This document shows positions 1 to 53,045 of a DNA stretch of 53,045 nucleotides, in pieces. The translations under genes and the position numbers were made by a program. Positions within the stretch are counted from its first letter, which is position 1. Each line of letters begins with the position of its first letter. The stretch lies in sequence record OR352957; one strand, written 5' to 3'. The notes below the pieces were generated by a model. The model did no database searches, was not told where the DNA came from, and saw only the letters and a list, made by a program, of their open reading frames with translations. This DNA comes from Escherichia phage AV127.

Positions 1-227
1 GCGCAAAGTAAGGTATACAATTTCGGCAGTATCATTGTGTACAATTACGCTAATGTCAACGATGTCGCTGGTACGGAAGGTAACAAAGTGCTCTTCAATT
101 ACTTGTTCGTCGGTATTAGGGCTGACGCCCTGAAAGGTCTTGAGTGTGTGAAACATTGGTTGTATCTCCTTAGCAGAATATACGTCTATTATGTATATAA
201 AGGAGGGGAAAGTAAATAGATATAAAT
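1..227. repeat. Terminal redundancy copy 1, identical to 52819-53045; carries the 5' end of the minus-strand gene (1-156) and half of the divergent control region
   Basis: Read directly: bases 1-227 match 52819-53045 base for base. Confidence 0.9.
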
Positions 228-14035: not shown

Positions 14036-14064
14036 TTTACTTTCGGTTTACCTGGCTGTATAAT
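14036..14064 (+). promoter_or_regulatory. Late promoter TTTACT-N17-TATAAT upstream of scaffold/capsid genes
   Basis: TTTACT 14036-14041, TATAAT 14059-14064; followed by 140-nt leader. Confidence 0.5.
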
Positions 14065-21409: not shown

Positions 21410-21438
21410 TTTACTTAACCGAGGCGCCAGCCTATAAT
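21410..21438 (+). promoter_or_regulatory. Promoter TTTACT-N17-TATAAT; -10 lies in the loop of an 8-bp GC palindrome (21424-21448)
   Basis: TTTACT 21410-21415, TATAAT 21433-21438; arms GCGCCAGC / GCTGGCGC. Confidence 0.5.
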
Positions 21439-21470
21439 AAGCTGGCGCACCCAATAAGAGGATTCTCCAG

Positions 21471-25487: not shown

Positions 25488-25910
25488 ATGATCATCGATT
25501 CTTCTGAATGCGTGTTGAGCCTGAATGGTGTTCAGCTGTCCGACTGGGCAGACGGTGCCGATGTCATTGACGTGCAATGGGTGGACCCAGCTTCCACCTA
25601 TCTTGCAGGTGCAGATGGCAATGGCATTCAGATTATGAACCCGTCCAAAGCNNCTATCAAGGTTAAGCAAAATGGTCCGGATGCCAAATGGCTTAACGAC
25701 CAGTACAACCTGCAGCGTAACAACATTCGTGGATTTGTCCCGTTTGTGCTGCAAGCCAAAGACCTGCTAAACCAGGATTTGGCATGGGGCAAAAAAGGTT
25801 ACTTTACCGATGGTTCCCCGTGGACTCGCGGTAACGGCCATAACCCGACTACCTTCGCTATTGTGTTCCACCAAGGTGGTATGCAGTTGACTGAAGGCTT
25901 TGACCAGTAA
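25488..25910 (+). CDS. Putative tail tube protein (contains 2-nt N gap at 25651-25652)
   Basis: 140 aa after sheath-like gene. Confidence 0.5.
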   Translation: MIIDSSECVLSLNGVQLSDWADGADVIDVQWVDPASTYLAGADGNGIQIMNPSKXXIKVKQNGPDAKWLNDQYNLQRNNIRGFVPFVLQAKDLLNQDLAWGKKGYFTDGSPWTRGNGHNPTTFAIVFHQGGMQLTEGFDQ

Positions 25911-40529: not shown

Positions 40530-40536
40530 AGTATAA

Positions 40537-40552
40537 CGGGGCCGAAGCCCCG
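40537..40552 (-). promoter_or_regulatory. Intercistronic RNA hairpin CGGGGC-UUCG-GCCCCG, 8 nt upstream of the 40529 start codon
   Basis: Read directly; UUCG tetraloop on the transcribed strand; no SD between hairpin and ATG. Confidence 0.55.
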
Positions 40553-40559
40553 CTCCATC

Positions 40560-41542
40560 TTATACGGCCATTTGGAGTTTGATGTTTGGCATTGGTTTGT
40601 ACTTCTCAACCATTGGCGCAACATCGGTAGGAGTGAAGTCAAATACTGACACGTCATAAATCGCGTTAATGTCAGGACGACCTTCAAAGTTAGTGTCCAG
40701 TGTAGTATCAGAATTGCTTACGATACGTTGCAGGAAAATCTTTGCCGCATCGATATGATTCTGATAGATGTGATAGTCACCCAACGTAACAGTCATATCA
40801 CCTACCCCAGTACCCAGCTCAGCAGCAATGGTAATCTGCAGCATTTGATGCAACAGAATATCGTGAGGCAGACCCAGAATAACATCCGCGCTACGCATGT
40901 GGAACATCAGCTCTAATTCATTACGGTTGTTAATGAACAGCTGAAAACCATGGTAACAAGGCGGAAGGGCCATGGCGTCCATCTCTTGTGGGTTCCACGC
41001 CGTAATGTACGCCCTGCGGTCAGTAGGCTTAACCTTCAGCGTTTCAATAACATCTTTAAGCTGGTTAGTAAGAACACCATTCTTATAGAAAGGCTTAATC
41101 CATTGCACGCCGTATACCGGACCTAAGTCACGGTTGTCTGGTGTACCCCAACGTTTGTTTGCATCCTGCAGGTTACCTTCCCACCAGTTGCAGCCAAAGC
41201 CTTTGAGCGTGTCGACGTTTGAAATGCCGTTGATAAAGCAGTAAAGCTCAGCAGCAACAGCTTTGATGTTAACAGGTTTAAACACCGGCACCATCAGTTT
41301 GTTGTCGTTGAAAGCCAGTTTAAACGCTGTACCAAAACAACGGCGGGTNNNNNNNNNNNNNNNNNNNNNNNNNNNNNNNNNNNNNNNNNNNNNNNNNNNN
41401 NNNNNNNNNNNNNNNNNNNNNNNNNNNNNNNNNNNNNNNNNNNNNNACCAACACCTGTACGGTCTACAACATCCTCACCTTTACGCAGGATAAAAGAAAT
41501 GATGTCGCTGTAAAGAGAATCGACAGTGCTGTATGTTTTCAT
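40560..41542 (-). CDS. Thymidylate-synthase-fold pyrimidine C5-modifying enzyme, predicted dCMP-directed; interrupted by 98-nt N gap
   Basis: DRTGVG, LGPVYGVQW, DRRAYITAWNPQEMDAMALPPCYHGFQ; Asp in GLPHDILL where ThyA has Asn (GLPFNIAS). Confidence 0.65.
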
Positions 41543-42520: not shown

Positions 42521-42546
42521 TGTATCTCTCCTCTAAAAGATAACTT

Positions 42547-42575
42547 ATTATACCACATCACTCTCTAGTGGTAAA
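42547..42575 (-). promoter_or_regulatory. Early promoter TTTACC-N17-TATAAT with ACCAC...GTGGT inverted repeat overlapping spacer and -10
   Basis: Minus strand reads TTTACCACTAGAGAGTGATGTGGTATAAT. Confidence 0.5.
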
Positions 42576-42601
42576 GCACTTTTTATGCTTCTGGTAAAAA
42601 T

Positions 42602-42630
42602 AAAAAGGACCAGCGTTAACTGGTCCTTTT
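42602..42630 (-). terminator. Bidirectional rho-independent terminator
   Basis: A5-AGGACCA-GCGTTAAC-TGGTCCT-T4. Confidence 0.65.
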
Positions 42631-42639
42631 GGCAGGGTG

Positions 42640-43197
42640 GTGTAAGGAGATACAAGGAATCGCAGTTATGCAACCAGGCAGCGCATATGAGATTGGCTAA
42701 AGGACTGACCGACTTAATCCCCACGACAAGTCAGAAAGGAGGTACCATCAAGTAGCCAATCACATATGCGTTACTTGCTGTGTGCTCTCACCGCGGAAAG
42801 TATAGAGCGTTGCACTTATCATACCGATGGAGTGGCAAAAGCACACAGCAAGTACAACCTTAGTTGTGGTGTCTTAGCACCTGAGTTACTGTGGATAACC
42901 TGCACCCGACGGGTGTCAAAAAGATACGCCAAAACACCACAACTAAAATTGTGACCGCCGTCTACACCAGGCGCCTGGGGTCAAGGTAGCGAGCCAATAC
43001 CCTTTTCAGCGTTGGAGGAATCGAACCTCACACATCACGGCTTTTACCAAATCTCGGTCAGCGAGCAGAATTGAACTGCATTCACTGGACACCCTCACTG
43101 TTTCAACACACCAGGCTTAATTGATTGTTGATAAGAAGAGAGATGTAAGGATGTCCATTGAATGCACCTCCGTAGAGGTGCGTTCAGATCAGCGCTA
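42640..43197 (-). other. Structured noncoding region with three successive long inverted repeats
   Basis: IRs 42681-42698/42754-42770 (17 bp, 1 mismatch), 42772-42786/42840-42854 (15 bp), 42860-42872/42934-42946 (13 bp); palindrome CCAGGCGCCTGG 42967-42978. Confidence 0.5.
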
Positions 43198-43665
43198 TTA
43201 TTCAGCAACTTCTACGTTGTCGCCTTCAATTGCGCCAGCCAGTTTAGCGGCTTCAGCTTTAGCAGCTTCTGCTTTCTGGCGAGCTTTTTCAGCTTTCTCT
43301 TCAGCTTTGCGAATCTGCTCAGCAGCTTTCGCTTCAGCTTTTTCAGCTTTGATGCGTGCACGCTCTTCAGCTTTACGCTGTTTTTCAGCGGCTTTAGCAG
43401 CATCGCGTTCTGCTTTAGCGGTATCAACGCGCTTAGCCAGAACCTTACCAGTGGCTTTACGCCAGTAGGTCAGCTGAGAAGAAACAGTACCACGGGACAT
43501 TTCGGTAGTAGCAACAACTTCGTCCATAACGTCAGAGCTGGACTTGCCTTCTTCGTGGGCTTTGTCAGCCAGGTCCCATACATAACGTGCGCCAGTACCA
43601 GATGCCGGATACAGTACGCCGTTAACTTCTTCTTTACCAGTTACAAAAGTCAGTTTCTCGCTCAT
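43198..43665 (-). CDS. Putative DNA-binding protein with K/A/E-rich histone-H1-like C-terminal tail
   Basis: Internal ATG with GAGGAAAA SD; C-terminal KAAEKQRKAEERARIKAEKAEAKAAEQ repeats. Confidence 0.45.
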   Translation of the reverse strand: MSEKLTFVTGKEEVNGVLYPASGTGARYVWDLADKAHEEGKSSSDVMDEVVATTEMSRGTVSSQLTYWRKATGKVLAKRVDTAKAERDAAKAAEKQRKAEERARIKAEKAEAKAAEQIRKAEEKAEKARQKAEAAKAEAAKLAGAIEGDNVEVAE

Positions 43666-43771
43666 AATTTTTTCCTCGTCTACAGGGCTTAATGTTTGTT
43701 CGTTACGTGAGTTAATATACGTCATTTAAAAGAGAGTGTAAACACCTTTTTTAAACTTTTTTCATTAGTGT

Positions 43772-43993
43772 CTAGAAAGGCACATCATAGTCAAAAAGTT
43801 TACATCCGGAAGACAGGACTGCCGGCGGTGGTGTTTTGCCTCCGGATAATAGACAACCTCCTGCCTGGAAACTACGGCAGTTCGCACAGCTCATATCCTG
43901 CAGGTATATAATAAGCTGCCGGCGGACGTGCCGTGGTAAAGCTTTAGCCTGGGTTGCTACCCGTTCAAATAGTTCTCTGTCATCGAGCGCCAT
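43772..43993 (-). CDS. Hypothetical small Cys-containing protein (73 aa)
   Basis: ORF track; CANC...GGC...GC cysteines; overlaps helicase 3' end. Confidence 0.3.
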   Translation of the reverse strand: MALDDRELFERVATQAKALPRHVRRQLIIYLQDMSCANCRSFQAGGCLLSGGKTPPPAVLSSGCKLFDYDVPF

Positions 43994-45650
43994 ATCCGTT
44001 CCCCCAATCGTAGTTCATGATTTGTGGGTAGGGACGTTTAATCCATACCTTAATACGCTTAGGAATGGCCAGCTCACCCTTACGGCGGATAAACTCGTCG
44101 CATGTTTCAGGTGGTTCGGTTCCTGCAGCATTACGCCACCAGGCATCTGCCATTTGTTTAGCATTACCATGGGCCTCAATATTTACCCAAGTTGTGTACA
44201 CTTCCAGGTTTGAATAATACACAACCTTTATACTGTCAGGCCGTCCTTGCTTCTGGAATAAGGAATAGTTTACCAGCGTAACGTCTTTGTCTACAACACG
44301 AAGCTGGCCATTAGTCATTACCTCTTCTTCTGACGAAGTGAATGCAATAGCCGGTCCGTTAACTGTAAATTCAAATTCATGTCCGCACATCGGATATACA
44401 CCATTCTCGTCTGGCGTACTTCCTTTAGCCGGATGCTTACACGTACGAGCAGCATAGCCACTTACCTGGTGACAGATAGGGCACTCTTTACCACCAGGCG
44501 TTTTCTCTGACCGTTTCTTTTTCTTCTTACCAAGACGTGGCGGAACAGCTGGGTCATCAATAGGACCAAGGTCAATGGTATTAGATGTAAAGTCCATAAC
44601 AAGACAGTCATGCTTGCCAGGCGCTGTACGTAGTCCTCGGCCGAGTATCTGCACCCACAAAGCAACAGACGTGGACGGGCGCAAGATGCCGAGCATATCA
44701 ATCTCAGGATAGTCAAATCCTGTCGTCAATACGTTTACGTTTACACATACCCGTGCTCGTCCGCTTGTAAACTCTTCCAGTGCGGCTTCACGTTCTTTCT
44801 TTGTAAGACCGCCATGTACAACAACAGTCTGCCAGCCTCGCAGATTAAATTCGTCTGCTATGTTGTGGGCGTGTTCAACACTTGTGGCGAATACAAGAAC
44901 GTGGTTCCTGTCTTTACCGTAGTGCATCATCTCACGAATAGCCGCGACTGTTATACTATGCTGGTTGGCTACCTTCTCAAGCTCTGACGGGATATAGTCA
45001 CCCATCCTTTCGCCAACATTACTGGTGTCAATCTTGGTTAACACTTTCTTGTTGACCAGGCGTGACAGGAAGCCTTCATTTACCAGTCTGGTAAATGCGT
45101 CAGGTGTTGTAAGGTCATAGCAGATGTCGGTAAATATACCGCAGTCAAGTAAATGACCCCCTGCCAGGCGATACGGAGTTGCTGTAAGTCCTGTTACTTT
45201 TACCTTAGGATTAAGCTCTTTGAAGTGAGCAATAACCTTACGGTATGTTGTTTCAGACTTCTCAGGAACAAGATGGGCTTCGTCAACGAATATAAGATTG
45301 AACTTACCTGCTTCTTCCAGGTTCTTAATGATTGACTGTACTGACGCTACAACGATACGACCTGAAAAGTCTTTGTGTCCTGCGCCTGAAGAGTAGATAG
45401 ATACTGGGGCTTGTGGCCAGTGACGTACAATCGCTTTGGCGTCTTGTTCTACCAGCTCCTTGACGTGTGTCAATATAAGAATGCGCTGACGGGGATAGCT
45501 GGTAAGAATATCCTTCATCAACATACCAAGCACAGGTGATTTACCTGAACCTGTCGGCATGACAATAAGTGGATTACCACTATAAGAATTGAAGTACGAC
45601 CACCAAGCTGTGACCGCTTCTTGTTGATACCAGCGAGCTTCAAAAGCCAT
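43980..45650 (-). CDS. SF2 DNA helicase (DEAH-type) with C-terminal Cys cluster
   Basis: Walker A MPTGSGKS; Walker B FVDEAHL; CPICHQ...C near C-terminus; GAGGAG SD. Confidence 0.7.
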   Translation of the reverse strand: MAFEARWYQQEAVTAWWSYFNSYSGNPLIVMPTGSGKSPVLGMLMKDILTSYPRQRILILTHVKELVEQDAKAIVRHWPQAPVSIYSSGAGHKDFSGRIVVASVQSIIKNLEEAGKFNLIFVDEAHLVPEKSETTYRKVIAHFKELNPKVKVTGLTATPYRLAGGHLLDCGIFTDICYDLTTPDAFTRLVNEGFLSRLVNKKVLTKIDTSNVGERMGDYIPSELEKVANQHSITVAAIREMMHYGKDRNHVLVFATSVEHAHNIADEFNLRGWQTVVVHGGLTKKEREAALEEFTSGRARVCVNVNVLTTGFDYPEIDMLGILRPSTSVALWVQILGRGLRTAPGKHDCLVMDFTSNTIDLGPIDDPAVPPRLGKKKKKRSEKTPGGKECPICHQVSGYAARTCKHPAKGSTPDENGVYPMCGHEFEFTVNGPAIAFTSSEEEVMTNGQLRVVDKDVTLVNYSLFQKQGRPDSIKVVYYSNLEVYTTWVNIEAHGNAKQMADAWWRNAAGTEPPETCDEFIRRKGELAIPKRIKVWIKRPYPQIMNYDWGNGYGAR

Positions 45651-45671
45651 TTATCATCTCCTCATTAACTT

Positions 45672-45700
45672 TATATATTATACCACTTCCTTGTGGTAAA
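45672..45700 (-). promoter_or_regulatory. Early promoter with ACCAC...GTGGT inverted repeat upstream of helicase
   Basis: Minus strand reads TTTACCACAAGGAAGTGGTATAATATATAA. Confidence 0.5.
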
Positions 45701-45708
45701 GTATACTT

Positions 45709-46587
45709 TTATTTTAAGGAAAGTTTAACGGGCTTCTCATCCTGCGGGAAGACATCAGCAGGTCGATAATCATCACAAGCTGCTAATTGCTCTTCGAGTG
45801 TTTCGAGCTCTTTCTGGTGCTTGTTACAATACCACACTTTGCCCTGAAGCGGTTTACTATAGTGGCAGGTTCTGCAGTTCCTGTCGGGCATTGCTCCTTT
45901 GTGGCATAAGTGGTGGTACGTGCACATTCCTGGCTTGCACTCCCACCAAATAGGCGATTCAGAAATCTTCGGCATATCCAAACCAGATTCCGCATATACG
46001 ACAGCCTCTGCTTTGCTCAGTTGTATGTCGCTTTCCAGTAAGTCAATCTCGACCACTTCAAAATACATCTCATCGGTGTTCTTGTTAATTGCAATATACA
46101 CAGCTTGATTCAGCTTAAGCTTCCGCATGTATACCTGCATTTGAGCATAGTGCACCGGCTTACTGGCTTTAACAGACTTGAGCTTGATTAGCTCTTTAAA
46201 CGACTTATCACCATGCGTTTTGAATTCAGCAAGTGCCCAAACGCCTTTGTATTTGATTACACAGTCACAAGACCCAGAGAAGATGTCATTGAAGTCGTGT
46301 ATGCGCCACTGCTTACCTGTTTTAGGGTTGACGTCCAGCACTTCATCACATACGGAACGAAGCCACTTCACAATTCTGCTTTCTTCAAGGTTACCACGTT
46401 CAAACAGACGAAGTTGCTTAGCGGTAAACTTCTCCTTGAACGACCAATGCAGAACGTGCCAAAGATAGCGATAGCAGTTGTGTCCTATCTGCGATGCTCC
46501 AAGATGCCCGCGTCGTTCTTCTCTTTCGTGGGCTTCGACTATCTTGACATCAATACGTTTCTGCAGGTCGTCAAACGGACTGGGCAT
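45709..46587 (-). CDS. RecB-family (Cas4-like) PD-(D/E)XK nuclease with 4-Cys cluster
   Basis: Start ATG 46587 with GAGGAG SD; D...LAEFK motif; one N-terminal and three C-terminal Cys (CKPGMCTYHHLC). Confidence 0.45.
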   Translation of the reverse strand: MPSPFDDLQKRIDVKIVEAHEREERRGHLGASQIGHNCYRYLWHVLHWSFKEKFTAKQLRLFERGNLEESRIVKWLRSVCDEVLDVNPKTGKQWRIHDFNDIFSGSCDCVIKYKGVWALAEFKTHGDKSFKELIKLKSVKASKPVHYAQMQVYMRKLKLNQAVYIAINKNTDEMYFEVVEIDLLESDIQLSKAEAVVYAESGLDMPKISESPIWWECKPGMCTYHHLCHKGAMPDRNCRTCHYSKPLQGKVWYCNKHQKELETLEEQLAACDDYRPADVFPQDEKPVKLSLK

Positions 46588-47056
46588 CGTTAAACTCCTC
46601 AATGCTGAATTCATCGTATACAATATTATGTGCCCACAAATGAGCGACGGCATTTGCCATGCTATCCTTCCATTTGGATTGTGAAGCTGTATGTGCCAAT
46701 GCAACTACACGTACCAGGTTAAGGTTGGCTATCAGCATGTTAGCACAATGTTCGCACGGCGGGTAGGTTATGTAGATGGTAACCGGGCCTAACGAAGGAG
46801 TGTCTAGCTCTCTCCTTATATTAGCTAAGGTGTTTATCTCGCTATGAATAGTTAGAGCGTTCTTGAGGCTATTAGGCACTATTCTTATAGAGTCTAGCTG
46901 CGTAGGTAAGCCGTTATATCCAGTGGAAATAATACGCTTGTTCTGGTCTACAAGAACGCTACCGACCTGGCGTTTCGGGTCATTCGACCAGCTTGCAACT
47001 TCACAAGCTATGCGCATAAACCGCCTGTCCCACTTGTCCATCTTCTTCTTTTGCAT
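46571..47056 (-). CDS. dCMP deaminase (cytidine/deoxycytidylate deaminase family)
   Basis: Zinc-binding motifs HSE and PCEHC. Confidence 0.7.
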   Translation of the reverse strand: MQKKKMDKWDRRFMRIACEVASWSNDPKRQVGSVLVDQNKRIISTGYNGLPTQLDSIRIVPNSLKNALTIHSEINTLANIRRELDTPSLGPVTIYITYPPCEHCANMLIANLNLVRVVALAHTASQSKWKDSMANAVAHLWAHNIVYDEFSIEEFNDAQSV

Positions 47057-47078
47057 GGTAGTCTCCGTATACGAAAAT

Positions 47079-47094
47079 AGGGGCCGAAGCCCCT
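47079..47094 (-). promoter_or_regulatory. Intercistronic RNA hairpin GGGGC-UUCG-GCCCC between SSB-like gene and dCMP deaminase
   Basis: Same 14-nt core as 40538-40551; lies at the left edge of the tandem duplication. Confidence 0.55.
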
Positions 47095-47769
47095 ATTGAA
47101 TATCTACTCGGCAGGGATTACTCTTCCCAAGGAGCTGCTTCACCGTCATCAGCACCAGGTGCCGTTGCAGTAGCATTCGCCTTCGTTGAAGTACCCGCAC
47201 CTGCACCTACTTTCTTCGTCGTCGATGCAGTTGCTTGAGACTGACCGCCTACTGCAGTAGTTGCTTCAGTTGACGCTTTGTATTCACGAATATCGTTCTG
47301 TGGGTCGTACTCACCGGTCTTGTCAACGCGAATACCTACTTTGCCAGCTACGATACGGTTTTCCAGCATACCAGTAGAAGTCAGTTCAACAATACCCAGA
47401 GCACGGCACAATGCAGACAGTTTGCGCCGAAGCCCCTATTGAATATCTACTCGGCAGGGATTACTCTTCCCAAGGAGCTGCTTCACCGTCATCAGCACCA
47501 GGTGCCGTTGCAGTAGCATTCGCCTTCGTTGAAGTACCCGCACCTGCACCTACTTTCTTCGTCGTCGATGCAGTTGCTTGAGACTGACCGCCTACTGCAG
47601 TAGTTGCTTCAGTTGACGCTTTGTATTCACGAATATCGTTCTGTGGGTCGTACTCACCGGTCTTGTCAACGCGAATACCTACTTTGCCAGCTACGATACG
47701 GTTTTCCAGCATACCAGTAGAAGTCAGTTCAACAATACCCAGAGCACGGCACAATGCAGACAGTTTGCG
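47084..47769. repeat. Tandem direct duplication, two 343-bp units (47084-47426 and 47427-47769)
   Basis: Units read as identical; junction CAGTTTGCG|CCGAAGCCCC. Confidence 0.85.
47118..47411 (-). pseudogene. Truncated duplicate of the SSB-like gene 3' half (97 codons, no proper start)
   Basis: Protein identical to C-terminus of 47461-48006; upstream frame hits a stop at the duplication junction. Confidence 0.55.
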
Positions 47770-48006
47770 ATGACCGATTTCAACAGCTTGTGAGTTAGGG
47801 TTGGAGTAAGTAATCATGTCAAACACAACACGGTTAGCGAACTCACCTTCCTGCACTTTCAAACGCAGGGACAGATAAGAACCGGTGCCTGCTTTAGTCG
47901 GCTTCAGCTCAACCTCTTCAATCATGAAGTTGTACCAGCCTTTCGGGATCGGGTCAAAAGACTGTTGCGGTTCGACGGTAGAGCTGTTGAAGTTTAATTC
48001 AGCCAT
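47461..48006 (-). CDS. Putative ssDNA-binding protein (Sak4-associated type)
   Basis: 181 aa with low-complexity T/A/G linker and acidic-aromatic tail ...DDGEAAPWEE; next to RecA-like ATPase. Confidence 0.4.
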   Translation of the reverse strand: MAELNFNSSTVEPQQSFDPIPKGWYNFMIEEVELKPTKAGTGSYLSLRLKVQEGEFANRVVFDMITYSNPNSQAVEIGHRKLSALCRALGIVELTSTGMLENRIVAGKVGIRVDKTGEYDPQNDIREYKASTEATTAVGGQSQATASTTKKVGAGAGTSTKANATATAPGADDGEAAPWEE

Positions 48007-48113
48007 TGTTTGGTATCCTGTTTAAGTTTAGTTTAATTTCGTTTAACGCTTTACCGGCAGCGTTCGGCCGTGATGCTTATTATACGCCACTTTTTATCAT
48101 GGCGTAAACACTT

Positions 48114-48998
48114 TTATTCGCCGGATTCTTTTTCAGCTTGAGCAGCTTTCTTCGCCATCCAGGCTTGGTGCTTCTCTTTCGATTCGTCTGAACCGATTTT
48201 AGTGAGTTGCACATTCGGGTCGTCGTTCTGCATTTGCTCTGCAGCTCGACCAGTCAGAAGCAGGTAGCTGTCTGACTCCGGATGATAATACCACAGCTGG
48301 TAAGGATGATAGCCTTGTAGCTTATCATAAATCCAGCCCAGATCTGCAGGTTCACGTGCATCCAGTTCACGGCCTGGTGCGTTACGGCACTTAGCTTCCC
48401 ATTGATAGTCAGGTTGTGTCTGAATATAACGTTCGCTGTTACCGTTGGCGTCTGGTGCAGTCATACGCAAAGCAAGTACCGCATCCATAAGATACGGCAA
48501 CTGTTTAGGTAACTGCTGGCCTGGCATAAGAGGTGAGTACAACATTGCACCAGTAACCTCGTCCTTGTTCTTCTCAAGCTTGCACAAGTATGCAACGCTG
48601 AAAGGCAAGTCACGGAACTGGCGCATGATGTACATCATCTTGTCGTTGGTGCTACCATACGCCTGTCGTTTGTCGTTAACCTGCGACTTCTCGTAGTCCA
48701 GACAAACCTCAGCTACATATGACAACGAGTCGAAAATCAGATGCTCATACTTCTGCGCATCCTTACTTTCGGTAAGCCATTTGTATAACGCCAGAATGTC
48801 GTTGAACGTATTGATTGGTGTAGAGTCAATGTCAGCGTCTGCAATTGACATCAAACCGCCTTCAGCATTAATGACAAGAACCTTGTCATGAGGCAAGGTC
48901 TTAGCCAGGGTTGTTTTACCAACACCTGACGCGCCGTAAATAGCGACCTTAGGTCGCTTATTTTCTACGGCTTGTTTAGTAGATACAATCTGAACCAT
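48114..48998 (-). CDS. Sak4-like RecA-fold ATPase
   Basis: Walker A GASGVGKTT near N-terminus, about 290 aa, adjacent to SSB-like gene. Confidence 0.5.
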   Translation of the reverse strand: MVQIVSTKQAVENKRPKVAIYGASGVGKTTLAKTLPHDKVLVINAEGGLMSIADADIDSTPINTFNDILALYKWLTESKDAQKYEHLIFDSLSYVAEVCLDYEKSQVNDKRQAYGSTNDKMMYIMRQFRDLPFSVAYLCKLEKNKDEVTGAMLYSPLMPGQQLPKQLPYLMDAVLALRMTAPDANGNSERYIQTQPDYQWEAKCRNAPGRELDAREPADLGWIYDKLQGYHPYQLWYYHPESDSYLLLTGRAAEQMQNDDPNVQLTKIGSDESKEKHQAWMAKKAAQAEKESGE

Positions 48999-49228
48999 TA
49001 ATGATAGTCCTCGTAAAGTGATTCTTCATCGCAATACATACGATAAAGAGCTTCTTCGGCTTCTTCCAGAGTGTCGAACTCCTCGCCACAGACGGAGTAC
49101 GTTGTGGGTTCATCAAATGACTCGACGATGTGCCAGTCATGATGAACGCCATATGTCAATAAATCGCAGTTATCTTTTGCGACAAGCTTACGTGTTGAAC
49201 GAAATTGCTCGATAGTTTGGATGCTCAT
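48998..49228 (-). CDS. Hypothetical small acidic protein (start at internal ATG)
   Basis: GAGGAG SD precedes ATG 49228 (MSIQTIEQ...). Confidence 0.4.
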   Translation of the reverse strand: MSIQTIEQFRSTRKLVAKDNCDLLTYGVHHDWHIVESFDEPTTYSVCGEEFDTLEEAEEALYRMYCDEESLYEDYH

Positions 49229-49255
49229 ATTCTCTCTCCTCATGTGTATGAGGAT

Positions 49256-49285
49256 ATTATACACCACTTACATGTGATATGTACA
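49256..49285 (-). promoter_or_regulatory. Early promoter TGTACA-N18-TATAAT with GTGGTG upstream of -10
   Basis: Minus strand reads AAGTGGTGTATAAT. Confidence 0.4.
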
Positions 49286-49288
49286 CTA

Positions 49289-49735
49289 CTATTTTACACG
49301 AACAGCTTGACACGATAAACGCGACAAACCGAGATTAGCTATAACGCCATCAAGCAATACGCCTGCATGCTCTTCATTGTATGCTTCTACCCACAAAGGG
49401 ATGGTTACGCCTTTCATATGGTCGCTGTATACGTTGAACGTAAACAATTGTTTGTGTGCTTTGTCAACACGCACAACAGTAAGATTACCATCCTCGCGTG
49501 ACGGAAGCTCAACGCCGTTATTACTCCAGAAGTTACGGAACTCGTCGCTGTTAACAATACCATGCACGACACGTTCTGTAAGTTCTGTTTTGAGGTCAGC
49601 ACGTGCCTTTGTACTGATAAAGAAACGACAAGAGAAGAAGGCATTGACGTTTAGCACATCGACAGCATACACAACGTTATGCTCTTCAGTAGTTGGCGCT
49701 TTATAAACAATATATTTAGTTTTGAACAGGTCCAT
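49289..49735 (-). CDS. Hypothetical protein (148 aa)
   Basis: ORF track. Confidence 0.45.
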   Translation of the reverse strand: MDLFKTKYIVYKAPTTEEHNVVYAVDVLNVNAFFSCRFFISTKARADLKTELTERVVHGIVNSDEFRNFWSNNGVELPSREDGNLTVVRVDKAHKQLFTFNVYSDHMKGVTIPLWVEAYNEEHAGVLLDGVIANLGLSRLSCQAVRVK

Positions 49736-49783
49736 AGTACTCTCCAGGGAGGAAGACTGGCGGGCTTGTACCCGCCAAAGTTA

Positions 49784-50689
49784 TTACAGCAGTTCTGCTT
49801 TAAGTGCAGCGATACCATCGAGCAACGCTTTGATGTCAGGGTTAGATGCTGCCAGGTCTGCAACAACTGACTGACGACGACGTTCCAGCTCTTTCTCAAC
49901 TTCCAGGTCGAGGCGTGCTGATGCTTCACGCAGTAAGTCTTCAACCTGCTGACGACGCTGGTACTTGTTAAAGTCAGGTACATCAACCAGCCATTTGAGA
50001 GTCGCAGTGTTATAGCCAGAAGTATTGGCTGCACTTACAGACACAACATCAACCAGCTTGGTACCGTTCAGCTCCGGATAGTTAACATTGCGAACGTCAA
50101 CAACCGCTTTGTCACCTACACTTACTTTGCCGATGTACTTGTAAGTGTACACACGACCATTCGGTTCAAACTTAACACCGACGAACTTCAGTTTATCGTC
50201 GGCAATAACTTCTTCTTCAACTTTGAAGTTGATTGCTGTGTTCTTGACAGGTGCAGCTGCTTTGAGCTTAGCAACCATGTACTGTTCGGAATGAGCAGGA
50301 CGGCACAGACGGAATACGTCTTCATTGTACGTCAGCCAGTTACCGGTTTCGTCCATGCATGCAATCTGATTAGTGCCATCCAGCGAACGAACGCCAGGGC
50401 GATTCTTCTCAACACGATACAGCTTACCTTTTTTCAGGTTAGCATAAGAACGGCGGGCGATACCCCAGTTGTGTTTTTCAGATTCATACTTAGCGAAACG
50501 GTCAACACTGAAGTTCTGCTTCAGACCGCGGTCGTCAATTACCCATAAGTTATCGTAAGCACCGCCGAAAGAACCCAGGTTGGCATACACTTTGCCCTGC
50601 GTCAGCAGGGAAGTGTTTCCCTCGTCAACACAGATAACAAAACCCAGAGCTTCGTGTGCTTTACCGCTGCGGTCAAATACTGTAGTCAT
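49784..50689 (-). CDS. Hypothetical protein (301 aa)
   Basis: ORF track; coiled-coil C-terminus. Confidence 0.45.
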   Translation of the reverse strand: MTTVFDRSGKAHEALGFVICVDEGNTSLLTQGKVYANLGSFGGAYDNLWVIDDRGLKQNFSVDRFAKYESEKHNWGIARRSYANLKKGKLYRVEKNRPGVRSLDGTNQIACMDETGNWLTYNEDVFRLCRPAHSEQYMVAKLKAAAPVKNTAINFKVEEEVIADDKLKFVGVKFEPNGRVYTYKYIGKVSVGDKAVVDVRNVNYPELNGTKLVDVVSVSAANTSGYNTATLKWLVDVPDFNKYQRRQQVEDLLREASARLDLEVEKELERRRQSVVADLAASNPDIKALLDGIAALKAELL

Positions 50690-50803
50690 TTCTTGTTTCC
50701 TTGTATACCAGTTTGATTGTATGCCAGAGATATTCCCTGCGCATGTGCTTTATTGCTTAACCGTTAAAGACATTATGTCATTAGTGAGTGGTGACGTACA
50801 CAT

Positions 50804-51094
50804 TTATTTTAAGGCAGAAGTGCAAATAGCATCACACAAACAATAATGAGCACGGTCGTAGTCCTCAAACAGGAACACTTCACCATTGGCGACTACTTCT
50901 GTATCGTTAACATGCAGGTCAATACCCGCATGGATGAGTACGTCCATAGCCTGGTCCTTGTTCTTATACGGATCCCAAATAAGCTGGAAGCCTGACCCAC
51001 AAAGGAGACAACCTTTGAGCTCCGGAAGAGATGACTCTTTCACAGTCACATTACAAATCTTAGCCAGCTTAGCGCGAGAATCGAGAGTGCTCAT
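50804..51094 (-). CDS. Hypothetical Cys-containing protein (96 aa)
   Basis: ORF track; 4-nt overlap with upstream gene. Confidence 0.4.
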   Translation of the reverse strand: MSTLDSRAKLAKICNVTVKESSLPELKGCLLCGSGFQLIWDPYKNKDQAMDVLIHAGIDLHVNDTEVVANGEVFLFEDYDRAHYCLCDAICTSALK

Positions 51095-51393
51095 TTACAT
51101 TTACCTTTACATTTGTGTGGAGGTGTATATGTTTTCTTCGGTACGCCGAACATGGCGGCATAGGTACCGACTTCTTTCTTTGTTGGCTTATCCACAATCT
51201 CGTCGGCCACGATAAAGTCTGGTCTGAGGGCACGACCTGTACAGCCAAAGACTTCAGCCGCTCTTTTCTCAACAGGAGTAAAGTCAATAACCAGCTCTTT
51301 GCCTATCAGACTTTCTTTGAACTTGTCAAATAGCCATTTGTCACGCGGACCAAGATTGCCCATAAACATAACATGCATCTGCTTATTGCCCAT
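51091..51393 (-). CDS. Hypothetical protein (100 aa)
   Basis: ORF track. Confidence 0.4.
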   Translation of the reverse strand: MGNKQMHVMFMGNLGPRDKWLFDKFKESLIGKELVIDFTPVEKRAAEVFGCTGRALRPDFIVADEIVDKPTKKEVGTYAAMFGVPKKTYTPPHKCKGKCK

Positions 51394-51461
51394 GGATGAT
51401 ATACCCCGTTATTTGTGTTGCCAGGTACAAGCCGTATACCACACACCCAACTAGTATGGCA

Positions 51462-51761
51462 TCAAGAATCAGATGAGCTATCTTCACGTTTGACTACCAC
51501 GTTACGGCTGTTAACCACTTCCAGGCTAATACCATCATCTTTGTGGGCTACACGAATAAATGCAACACCTTCGAGTTGTGCCTGTTCAATAGCTTTATTC
51601 AGCACGGCATTATCCTGCACCATATGACGTACACGAGGAAGGATATTGCAAAGTGGTTCCATCTCGTCCATTCCTGCAGTACGCATAATTGACTTGAGAA
51701 TGCCGAGGTGGTGACGGTAACGGTCTTCAACATTATACTTCTTGCCGTTATGCTTTAACAT
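51462..51761 (-). CDS. Hypothetical protein (start at internal ATG)
   Basis: GGAGG SD before ATG 51761 (MLKHNGKK...). Confidence 0.45.
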   Translation of the reverse strand: MLKHNGKKYNVEDRYRHHLGILKSIMRTAGMDEMEPLCNILPRVRHMVQDNAVLNKAIEQAQLEGVAFIRVAHKDDGISLEVVNSRNVVVKREDSSSDS

Positions 51762-51769
51762 GAAAGCCT

Positions 51770-51799
51770 CCAAAAGTCAGGGGGCTTGTGCTAAGCCCC
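51770..51799 (-). terminator. Hairpin GGGGCTT-AGCAC-AAGCCCC plus U-tract, possible attenuating terminator
   Basis: Read directly on minus strand; overlaps SD of the next gene. Confidence 0.35.
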
Positions 51800-51814
51800 G
51801 TTTAATTACTCGGC

Positions 51815-52255
51815 TTATTCCGTATCTGCCGGTGTGAATGTTACAGTCGGAATACCTGGTGAAGTCTTCACAACAGGGTCGACGATAGCCAGCTGTTCTG
51901 GTGTCAGGTTACGATACGCAGTAACTGACATTTCGTACTTGGTTTTAAACAGCTTGGCAACAACAGTCTTCGGTAACTTCTTCATTACGTCAGGCACAAG
52001 CTTCTGATCAAGTGAGCGGTTAACCTTCTGCTCAACCTTGAGTTTACCAGGTACGCCATGCATGCTGAACTCAACCGTTTGTGTACCTTCTTTACCGCGG
52101 TTGATAATCATGTCGCGTTCAAGACGAGCCTTAATGGTCCGGCGCAACGTCTCCTGGTCAGCTTTCGCTTGTGCCATCCAGCGGTTCAGATTCGCCAGCT
52201 TGTCGTACAGCTGTTCCGTGTCCATCGATTCCAGTTCTTGTGGGGTCAGTGCCAT
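51815..52255 (-). CDS. Hypothetical protein (start at internal ATG)
   Basis: GAGGAAA SD before ATG 52255 (MALTPQELESMD...). Confidence 0.45.
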   Translation of the reverse strand: MALTPQELESMDTEQLYDKLANLNRWMAQAKADQETLRRTIKARLERDMIINRGKEGTQTVEFSMHGVPGKLKVEQKVNRSLDQKLVPDVMKKLPKTVVAKLFKTKYEMSVTAYRNLTPEQLAIVDPVVKTSPGIPTVTFTPADTE

Positions 52256-52526
52256 CAGTTGTTTCCTCAGGTTGCATGTGTATAGTTGCACCGATCAGTA
52301 AGCAATAGTTATTGAACATTGTACGTAGGGCTTGGCCCGCAGCAATATCCGTTACGTCTATTATACCACTTTTAGTGGTGACGCGTAAAGCTTTTTCTTT
52401 CTTTGTTTTTTCCACGAATGCAATGCTGATGATTTCTTCCGCATGGATTACGTGGATGGTACCTGCAAACTCACCAGTCTTAGCTGGCGCCTGGTACACT
52501 AACGACATAGACGGTTGGTTACTCAC
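52158..52526 (-). CDS. Hypothetical protein (122 aa); its 3' part overlaps the next promoter and gene
   Basis: ORF track; AGGAG before GTG 52526; true extent uncertain. Confidence 0.3.
   Translation of the reverse strand: MSNQPSMSLVYQAPAKTGEFAGTIHVIHAEEIISIAFVEKTKKEKALRVTTKSGIIDVTDIAAGQALRTMFNNYCLLIGATIHMQPEETTDGTDPTRTGIDGHGTAVRQAGESEPLDGTSES
52350..52379 (-). promoter_or_regulatory. Early promoter TTTACG-N18-TATAAT with CACCAC...GTGGT inverted repeat
   Basis: Minus strand reads TTTACGCGTCACCACTAAAAGTGGTATAAT. Confidence 0.45.
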
Positions 52527-52536
52527 TTAATTGCTC

Positions 52537-52974
52537 CTATTTATATAAGTCCATCCAGTTACGATACTCGTCATAAAACCGGTCAAACTCGTTTTTGGTG
52601 AGTGCAATAGCAACACCATTTACCAGATGCATGGTTCGTGTTTTGATGTTGACATACATGACATTGCTGTACGGAAATAAGCTACCGTCATTGTCAGTGA
52701 AATAAGTAGGTGTAATATGAAGCGCATCACGCAATGCAACCAGTGATTCAACAGCTTCAGCGTGCCATTCACGTTTGAAGGTCATGCAAGGCGGTGCACC
52801 GTCTTCGTCCTGGGTACCGCGCAAAGTAAGGTATACAATTTCGGCAGTATCATTGTGTACAATTACGCTAATGTCAACGATGTCGCTGGTACGGAAGGTA
52901 ACAAAGTGCTCTTCAATTACTTGTTCGTCGGTATTAGGGCTGACGCCCTGAAAGGTCTTGAGTGTGTGAAACAT
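52537..52974 (-). CDS. Hypothetical protein (145 aa), first gene of the minus-strand early block
   Basis: AAGGAG SD 8 nt before ATG; 5' end lies in the terminal repeat (also present as 1-156). Confidence 0.5.
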   Translation of the reverse strand: MFHTLKTFQGVSPNTDEQVIEEHFVTFRTSDIVDISVIVHNDTAEIVYLTLRGTQDEDGAPPCMTFKREWHAEAVESLVALRDALHITPTYFTDNDGSLFPYSNVMYVNIKTRTMHLVNGVAIALTKNEFDRFYDEYRNWMDLYK

Positions 52975-53045
52975 TGGTTGTATCTCCTTAGCAGAATATA
53001 CGTCTATTATGTATATAAAGGAGGGGAAAGTAAATAGATATAAAT
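52819..53045. repeat. Terminal redundancy copy 2 (direct repeat of 1-227)
   Basis: Exact identity to window start; unit length 52,818 bp. Confidence 0.9.

Follow-up and report, generated by a model that had tools for sequence, protein, structure and literature searches.

Sequence record OR352957 of Escherichia phage AV127 (53,045 nt; "the window" below, meaning this whole stretch) was analysed for the promoters of its leftward transcribed genes, several of which carry a short palindrome, ACCAC...GTGGT, whose right arm is fused to the -10 hexamer. A preliminary description of this DNA had taken the palindrome for an operator shared by these promoters. The window is a Rosemountvirus genome, apparently a whole one, of a BP63-like myovirus, and its DNA is 96-97.5% identical to that of Salmonella and Escherichia Rosemountvirus phages, e.g. 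BP63, yarpen and SE-SHZ-R. Phages of this genus are myoviruses of roughly 53 kb. The promoters with the palindrome sit in a leftward module that runs from 52974 down to ~37067 and codes for small proteins, Sak4, SSB, dCMP deaminase, a Cas4-like exonuclease, a helicase, thymidylate synthase, DNA polymerase and a DksA-like protein. Promoter positions were found by a scan with a loose -35/-10 rule and then by comparison with relatives, 17 genomes in all (the window and 16 others) that represent four or five lineages: Rosemountvirus (yarpen, BP63, SE13, birk, BEC1-17, SPHG1), Loughboroughvirus (S144, ZCSE2, SE4, AEV23), the fHy-Eco03/KM/KE25/L012 group, the metagenomic contig L079 and Erwinia phage SOI901. 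Nine orthologous promoter positions were identified in the module (P0, P3, P7, P4, P5, P2, P6, P1 and P8). The predicted elements of the window, with spacer lengths given in bp between the two hexamers, are the following:

53006-53034, minus strand: P0, TTTACT-17-CATAAT, first promoter of the leftward module, in a divergent region; copy at 188-216; no hairpin.
52360-52389, minus strand: P3, TTTACG-18-TGgTATAAT inside the open reading frame (ORF) 52158-52526; arms ACCACT (52374-52379) and AGTGGT (52365-52370).
50772-50800, minus strand: P7, TGTACG-17-CATAAT; spacer TCACCACT conserved, no conserved pairing partner.
49256-49285, minus strand: P4, TGTACA-18-TATAAT before a 76-aa gene and Sak4 (ATG 49228); arms ATCAC (49274-49278) and GTGGT (49263-49267) with one G.U pair.
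48079-48108, minus strand: P5, TTTACG-18-TATAAT before the SSB gene (ATG 48006); hairpin TTTACGCCA-N10-TGGCGTATAAT, in which TACGCCA (48100-48106) pairs with TGGCGTA (48083-48089).
45677-45705, minus strand: P2, TATACT-17-TGgTATAAT before the helicase gene (ATG 45650); hairpin TACCAC (45693-45698), loop AAGGAA (45687-45692), GTGGTA (45681-45686); upstream stop codon at 45709-45711.
43714-43742, minus strand: P6, TTTACA-17-TATATT; no spacer hairpin (0.0 kcal/mol in all genomes).
42603-42630, minus strand: intrinsic terminator, 12-bp stem and T-run, in the AT-rich region directly upstream of the P1 -35 hexamer.
42547-42575, minus strand: P1, TTTACC-17-TGgTATAAT before a 132-aa gene (ATG 42520); arms ACCAC (42568-42572) and GTGGT (42552-42556).

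The family consensus derived from the 17 genomes consists of an A-rich upstream tract, (G)T(G/T)TACn, a spacing of 17-18 bp, often TGn, and TATAAT. The -10 is a perfect TATAAT at P1 to P5, preceded at canonical distance by TTTACC (17 bp, P1), TTTACG (18 bp, P3 and P5) or TGTACA (18 bp, P4); P2 has a weak -35 (TATACT, 17 bp) but possesses an extended -10 (TGg). The TATAAT of P1, P2 and P4 sits 26-27 nt before the ATG, which is itself preceded by the Shine-Dalgarno (SD) sequence GAGGAG. The A-rich tract, the TTTAC-type -35, the TGn and the perfect TATAAT, together with presumed dependence on the host RNA polymerase, resemble the early promoters of T4, in which UP, -35, TGn and -10 elements are combined (Hinton 2010, PMC2988021). 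Several of the positions have been noticed before: the GenBank record of BP63 annotates P1, P2, P5 and P6 as 'similar to TTGACA(N15-18)TATAAT', and the records of S144 and AEV23 carry PhagePromoter predictions at several sites of the family. Judging from these sequence elements, the host RNA polymerase with sigma70 very probably initiates at the predicted promoters, and this part of the preliminary description is upheld by their conservation in the 17 genomes.

The palindrome itself required more revision. The pattern ACCAC-N-GTGGTATAAT is indeed found exactly three times in the window, always in the minus strand (42547-42572, 45677-45697, 52360-52379), and had no match in 100 dinucleotide-preserving shuffles; if the -10 is left out the same three places are recovered and no others, 3 observed versus 0.56 expected over the whole window. 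The variant GTGGTGTATAAT is present as reported at 49256-49267, 27 nt ahead of ATG 49228. The distance between the arms, said to be 5-9 nt, is in fact 11 nt (42547), 6 nt (45677) and 5 nt (52360). The TTTACC put forward as the -35 at 45677 cannot have this role because it is just 12 nt from TATAAT; the hexamer at the correct 17-nt distance is TATACT, and relatives have TGTACN. The site at 52360 does lie upstream of ATG 52255, but at a distance of 105 nt and within the coding sequence of a conserved 122-aa ORF (52158-52526). The set of sites was moreover incomplete, as a fifth promoter of the same architecture with different arms is found before the SSB gene (P5). The recommended motif scan of relatives gave a divided answer: the promoter positions are conserved in all genomes compared, the ACCAC/GTGGT arms are not. 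As to the recurrence of identical arms within the window, GTGGT makes a good extended -10 and the left arm is its complement; the three identical pairs are best explained by convergence, with a complementary left arm accompanying GTGGT, and promoter paralogy may contribute. TCACCAC recurs in the spacers of P2, P3 and P7, perhaps again by paralogy of the promoters, and the spacer box CACCACT, which recurs in these three promoters as well, is not enriched genome-wide (9 found versus 8 expected).

What is conserved at three of the promoters is pairing. Folding of each spacer was compared with shuffles in which both hexamers were kept fixed. A significant hairpin was found for P5 in 17 of the 17 genomes (-6.9 to -12.8 kcal/mol as RNA), for P2 in all of them (-4.7 to -8.4 kcal/mol) and for P4 in most, while the spacers of P0, P6 and P8 did not fold in any. 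P3 pairing is significant in Rosemountviruses only. The lineages that bear the pairing at P2, P4 and P5 are ~70-75% identical in DNA, and the arms differ among them. At P2 Rosemountvirus has TACCAC/GTGGTA, Loughboroughvirus and the fHy-Eco03 group share TATCAC/GTGATA, SOI901 has CGCGC/GCGCG and the metagenomic contig ACGC/GCGT, around a six-base loop, (A)TGGAA, that stays constant. Counted over the P2 alignment, 88.9% of the cells are paired, three of the six pairs show double changes and one pair displays all four Watson-Crick types (CG/UA/GC/AU); the covariation score was reached by none of 500 shuffles, and every slid register collapses. P4 orthologues have ACCCCA/TGGGGT, ACCCCT/AGGGGT, ACCTCT/AGGGGT and ATAACC/GGTTAT where the window has ATCAC/GTGGT. 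At P5 every cell is paired (100%) in each of the five lineages; one G-C pair is replaced by A-U through compensation, and two pairs are G.U. The behaviour expected of a structured RNA conserved by covariation is strong at P2, is visible in several arm variants at P4 and amounts to one compensation at P5. From this comparison selection at P2 (helicase), P4 (Sak4 operon) and P5 (SSB) appears to keep the pairing rather than the sequence. As far as our literature search could show, the compensatory evidence for this stem is new.

The spacer hairpin is the sole structure returned by RNAalifold over the whole P2 gap, and a larger conserved RNA structure around P2 was accordingly discarded; a search of Rfam gave no match at gathering scores. 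More distant phages add little. Helicase homologues with 35-43% identity (IMG/VR and metagenomes) have no promoter ahead of the helicase gene and are thus uninformative on P2, and a scan of viral contigs with a degenerate P2 pattern retrieved known relatives and unrelated chance matches only.

The two other palindromic promoters have a different history. The P1 promoter and its spacer (tagagagtgRtgt) are conserved in all relatives. Apart from some Rosemountviruses, all lineages have GTAGT or ATAGT as the right arm, i.e. (G/A)TAGTATAAT; a single recent substitution of G for A at -14 gave rise to the ACCAC/GTGGT pairing of the window and to the TGn as well. P3 keeps its -35 and -10 at fixed codons (L-R/H-V ... 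G-I-I/M) in every lineage, Erwinia phage SOI901 included. A complete sigma70-type promoter thus lies within the coding sequence of a conserved protein, whose ORF overlaps the gene starting at ATG 52255 by ~100 nt.

The position of the three covarying hairpins is consistent with their acting in transcripts that arrive from upstream. Just 7-15 nt separate P2, P4 and P5 from the stop codon of the preceding gene, and no terminator comes before them. A conserved spacer hairpin is missing at P1, which has a real terminator just upstream, and at P0, which is the first promoter; relatives keep the P1 terminator, whose stem shows a compensatory change (GGACCAG/CTGGTCC versus GGACCTG/CAGGTCC). Of the arms of the spacer hairpin, the left one comes after the -35 and the right one spans -17 to -11, that is the TGn and the first bases of TATAAT. 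Since both arms are upstream of the predicted start site, the hairpin can form only in RNA that reads through from an upstream promoter. In the window the hairpins have -6.3 to -11.8 kcal/mol as RNA (P5, -11.8 kcal/mol with z = -5.0) and -1.8 to -6.3 kcal/mol as DNA, and P4 folds as RNA and not as DNA. Non-Watson-Crick pairs occur five times in the stems of P2, P4 and P5, always as G.T on the sense strand and never as A.C, a modest signal only since it represents five independent events. Taken together these properties suggest an action at the RNA level.

A precedent exists for stem-loops in such places. The 'promoter-early stem-loops' (PeSL) of the T4-type myoviruses RB49/phi1, PST/T4 and nt-1/KVP40 (Arbiol et al. 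2010, PMC2839356; Comeau et al. 2014, PMC4122927) are cassettes, as outlined in these papers, in which a stop codon within an AT-rich tract is followed by a strong sigma70-like promoter and then by an SD and an ATG. Their stem-loop is described as lying mostly between -35 and -10 or overlapping the -10, otherwise farther up in the AT-rich part, and is drawn with G-T pairs; it was proposed to terminate or attenuate upstream transcription, and one RB49 stem-loop cut lacZ expression like rrnB T1 (PMC2839356). The promoter consensus given for PST/T4 is TTTACW-N17-TAYWAT (PMC4122927), and the cassettes are reported to mediate gene shuffling (PMC2839356; PMC4122927). At P2, P4 and P5 the same stop-to-ATG arrangement is found, which is not the case of the intragenic P3. 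Stem-loops occupy the corresponding places: the spacer (P2, P4, P5), the upstream AT-rich tract (the P1 terminator) and the surroundings of the -10 (the plus-strand element 21410-21448 described below). The G-T pairs in the stems and the TTTACW -35 hexamer of T4/PST type are further likenesses. On account of these placements the elements are filed here as PeSL-like, although their phages (Rosemountvirus, 53 kb) are not related to the T4-like ones. They differ by their shorter stems and by their location between conserved replication genes, whereas PeSLs flank ORFans in hyperplastic regions. Covariation among orthologues was found here; no such analysis came to light in the parts of the PeSL papers covered.

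The palindrome is thus probably, though by no means certainly, the stem of a short hairpin in the spacer of host sigma70-type promoters, similar to PeSLs, and not the operator of a regulator. According to the model that we favour, the sigma70-type promoters would punctuate the leftward operon for replication and nucleotide metabolism. In messenger RNA reading through from upstream promoters the spacer would fold into a stem-loop that extends as far as the first bases of the -10. If PeSLs are a guide, this stem-loop would damp or terminate read-through, or else stabilise and protect the RNA end arising at this point. From these same 30 bp of DNA a new transcript would be initiated for the following gene, and the downstream units (Sak4, SSB, helicase) would each be driven mainly by their own promoter. 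Our confidence that the spacer stem-loop attenuates read-through or stabilises an RNA end is moderate to low.

Several points weigh against a PeSL-like stem-loop. The stems are short (5-8 bp), that of P2 is weak, and they are followed by UAUAAU with no U-tract. They are therefore not canonical intrinsic terminators, and the only terminator that a scan reported near these sites is the one at 42603-42630. RB49 stems are built as polyG-loop-polyC, whereas here the C-rich arm precedes the G-rich one. P6 and P7 are also internal intercistronic promoters yet have no conserved hairpin. The covariation rests on just four or five lineages, that of P5 taken alone was matched by 57 of 500 shuffles and so does not beat its control, and template switching at quasi-palindromes could mimic compensation. 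The hallmarks of recombination and ORFan shuffling are not clearly seen: P1 adjoins a variable region (42521-43197), but no insertion with a cassette on both sides was seen among the relatives compared. SPHG1, tried as an example of recombination between cassettes, was rejected since the helicase leader is present at its junction as an inverted copy, suggestive of an assembly artefact. Our literature search found no transcriptome or 5'-end data for this phage group. An antisense terminator, another candidate role for the stems, was rejected by inspection, the T-run in the plus strand being 6-10 nt from the stem.

The inverted repeat could instead work in the DNA and tune the promoter, if supercoiling or a transient single-stranded state let it extrude as a hairpin or cruciform. 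In favour of this, the right arm is always fused to positions -12/-11 and covers the extended -10 region, and the G.T pairs of the sense strand would fit a hairpin in the non-template DNA strand as well as one in RNA. There are precedents in the N4 virion RNA polymerase promoters and in the cruciform-repressed promoter of Horwitz and Loeb (cited in PMC6060812 and PMC4496689). The likeness to N4 is that a short stem (5-7 bp) is part of the promoter; N4 promoters differ in having no sigma70 elements, 3-nt loops, a giant virion polymerase and an extruded template-strand DNA. The window encodes no giant virion RNA polymerase (its largest ORF has 985 aa), all loops but that of P3 measure 6-11 nt, and the sigma70 elements are perfect. 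The DNA hairpins are weak, with loops of 6-10 nt, and P4 of the window is unfolded as DNA. Extrusion of 5-7 bp arms with such loops is energetically unlikely. We consider a structure at the DNA level unlikely on these grounds.

The operator originally proposed, to which a dimeric phage regulator would bind through ACCAC...GTGGT over the -10 region and switch the promoters jointly, is very unlikely. It draws on three identical arm pairs and one near-identical pair, all at promoters only, and on A(C/T)CAC-N6-GTGGT being common to P2 and P4; the ACCAC/GTGGT half-site is presumably similar to lambdoid half-sites of TATCAC type. Operators of lambda (OR/OL) and of P22 (Arc/Mnt) also have an inverted repeat between or over the -35 and -10, but they keep half-site sequence and spacing. 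Here the spacing is inconstant (5, 6 and 11 nt, and 10 nt with different arms at P5), and the arms of orthologues vary with compensation around a constant centre, the reverse of what a dimer operator would show. Promoters within the S144, KM or SOI901 genome share no half-site, the arms being shared in the Rosemountvirus lineage only. The P1 palindrome is absent from most relatives, including the Rosemountvirus SE13, and that of P3 lies in coding sequence and is tied to codons. We take the arrangement of the arms not to fit boxes of CRP, LexA, Fur or TyrR type. The gene products suggested as regulators (310-642 and 43198-43725) belong to 10 small proteins of the module, most without known function, that gave no DNA-binding match in Pfam or PHROG. 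The 'putative sigma factor' of ZCSE2 (MK673511, L105; positions 1901-2791) was also discarded as a regulator: it is a Sak4-like ATPase, most likely misannotated.

That the pairing has no function at all we regard as equally doubtful. It would be a by-product of the complementarity between the TAC of the -35 and the GTA of the -10, to which correction of quasi-palindromes by template switching, or promoter duplication, would have contributed. TTTAC and GTATAAT do give TAC/GTA pairing automatically, the P1 pairing came from one substitution, the promoters look paralogous (TCACCAC in P2, P3 and P7), and 32 of the 318 -10-like hexamers in the window (~10%) adjoin a perfect hairpin of at least 5 bp. 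Against this, P2, P4 and P5 beat the hexamer-fixed shuffles in nearly every genome, the same three promoters stay paired across lineages when P0, P6 and P8 never do, and one P2 pair explores all four Watson-Crick types. Seven promoter-like regex matches in 100 kb of T4, five of them with a TTTAC -35, had no significant spacer hairpin; in this small sample the hairpin is therefore no general trait of T4-type early promoters.

We also give little credence to the idea that the stem-loop and the consensus -10 form one bifunctional, non-canonical terminator-promoter switch free of a U-tract, in which a hairpin of the nascent RNA would act with a sigma70-dependent pause at the non-template TATAAT. 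The pause would replace the U-run, and the switch would stop or slow read-through while the same DNA fires, and couple upstream transcription to the output of the internal promoter. The geometry is imperfect: a pause of lambda PR' type puts the RNA 3' end ~15 nt past the stem and canonical termination needs 7-9 nt. The separate action of a promoter and of a PeSL-like stem-loop in read-through RNA remains the account that we prefer.

Other RNA elements were observed next to the promoters. The SSB leader (48007-48070, minus strand) contains an H-type pseudoknot, from which UUAAAC/UAAAC repeats extend to the SD, in close resemblance to the translational operator of T4 gene 32; the leader has no match in Rfam. 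Its stem 1 pairs CGGC (48067-48070) with GCCG (48055-48058) and covaries (GAGC/GCTC, AAGC/GCTT, AGGT/ACCT, ATGC/GCAT), and its stem 2, AACGC (48060-48064) with GCGTT (48045-48049), is invariant across lineages. This gene 32-like leader suggests that SSB autoregulates its own translation. In the P4 leader (49229-49255, minus strand) the pyrimidine run TCCTCAT (49248-49254), directly past the -10, pairs with the SD region ATGAGGA (49237-49243). The predicted P4 start (A 49249) is 3' of most of the TCCTCAT arm, and masking of the SD is therefore predicted for read-through RNA; RNA started at P4 is predicted to be unstructured. This recalls the cases of T4 lysozyme, soc and gene 49, and is predicted in Rosemountvirus and Loughboroughvirus and not in KM. 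In ZCSE2 and AEV23 (L009/L107) a 150-nt ORF is inserted exactly between the P2 leader and the helicase start codon and takes over the helicase SD; it is not found in S144 and SE4. Farther downstream, before ATG 40529 (40530-40562, minus strand), a CGGGGCTTCGGCCCCG hairpin (40537-40552), closed by a UUCG tetraloop, stands between the SD GGAG (40553-40556) and the start codon. This is a putative 'split' ribosome-binding site in which the hairpin would join SD and ATG; it is conserved in relatives with different stems.

Copies of TTTACT-17-TATAAT are found in the plus strand at 250-279, 14036-14064 and 21410-21438. The last one follows the 985-aa gene in the structural region and belongs to a composite of promoter and stem-loop (21410-21448) whose 8-bp stem, GCGCCAGC (21424-21431) with GCTGGCGC (21441-21448), encloses the -10 in its loop. 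The segment 42521-43197 (~680 nt) between the gene for a 175-aa protein and P1 has no annotated gene in yarpen and BP63 and varies by lineage: S144 and KM have small ORFs there, SOI901 two tRNA genes. An exact 227-bp direct repeat at the ends of the window (1-227 and 52819-53045), by which P0 is present twice, could be the overlap of a circular assembly or true terminal redundancy. A second exact direct repeat, of 300 nt (47083-47382 and 47426-47725, 343 nt apart), copies the 3' part of the SSB gene and half of the next hairpin and generates ORF 47118-47411. It is not found in yarpen or BP63, and is either a real tandem duplication or an assembly artefact. Masked runs of N are located at 25652 (2 nt), 29112 (60 nt) and 41349 (94 nt).

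The covariation among orthologues provides evolutionary evidence of selection on the stem, and it cautions annotators not to read palindromes embedded in promoters as operators. A practical outcome is a set of strong, compact predicted promoters and candidate attenuators from Salmonella and E. coli phages of the kind used in therapy. If the interpretation is correct, the design that combines a promoter with a stem-loop would not be peculiar to T4-like phages, and lytic phages with compact genomes would use it more generally to insulate a transcription unit and start the next one within ~30 bp.

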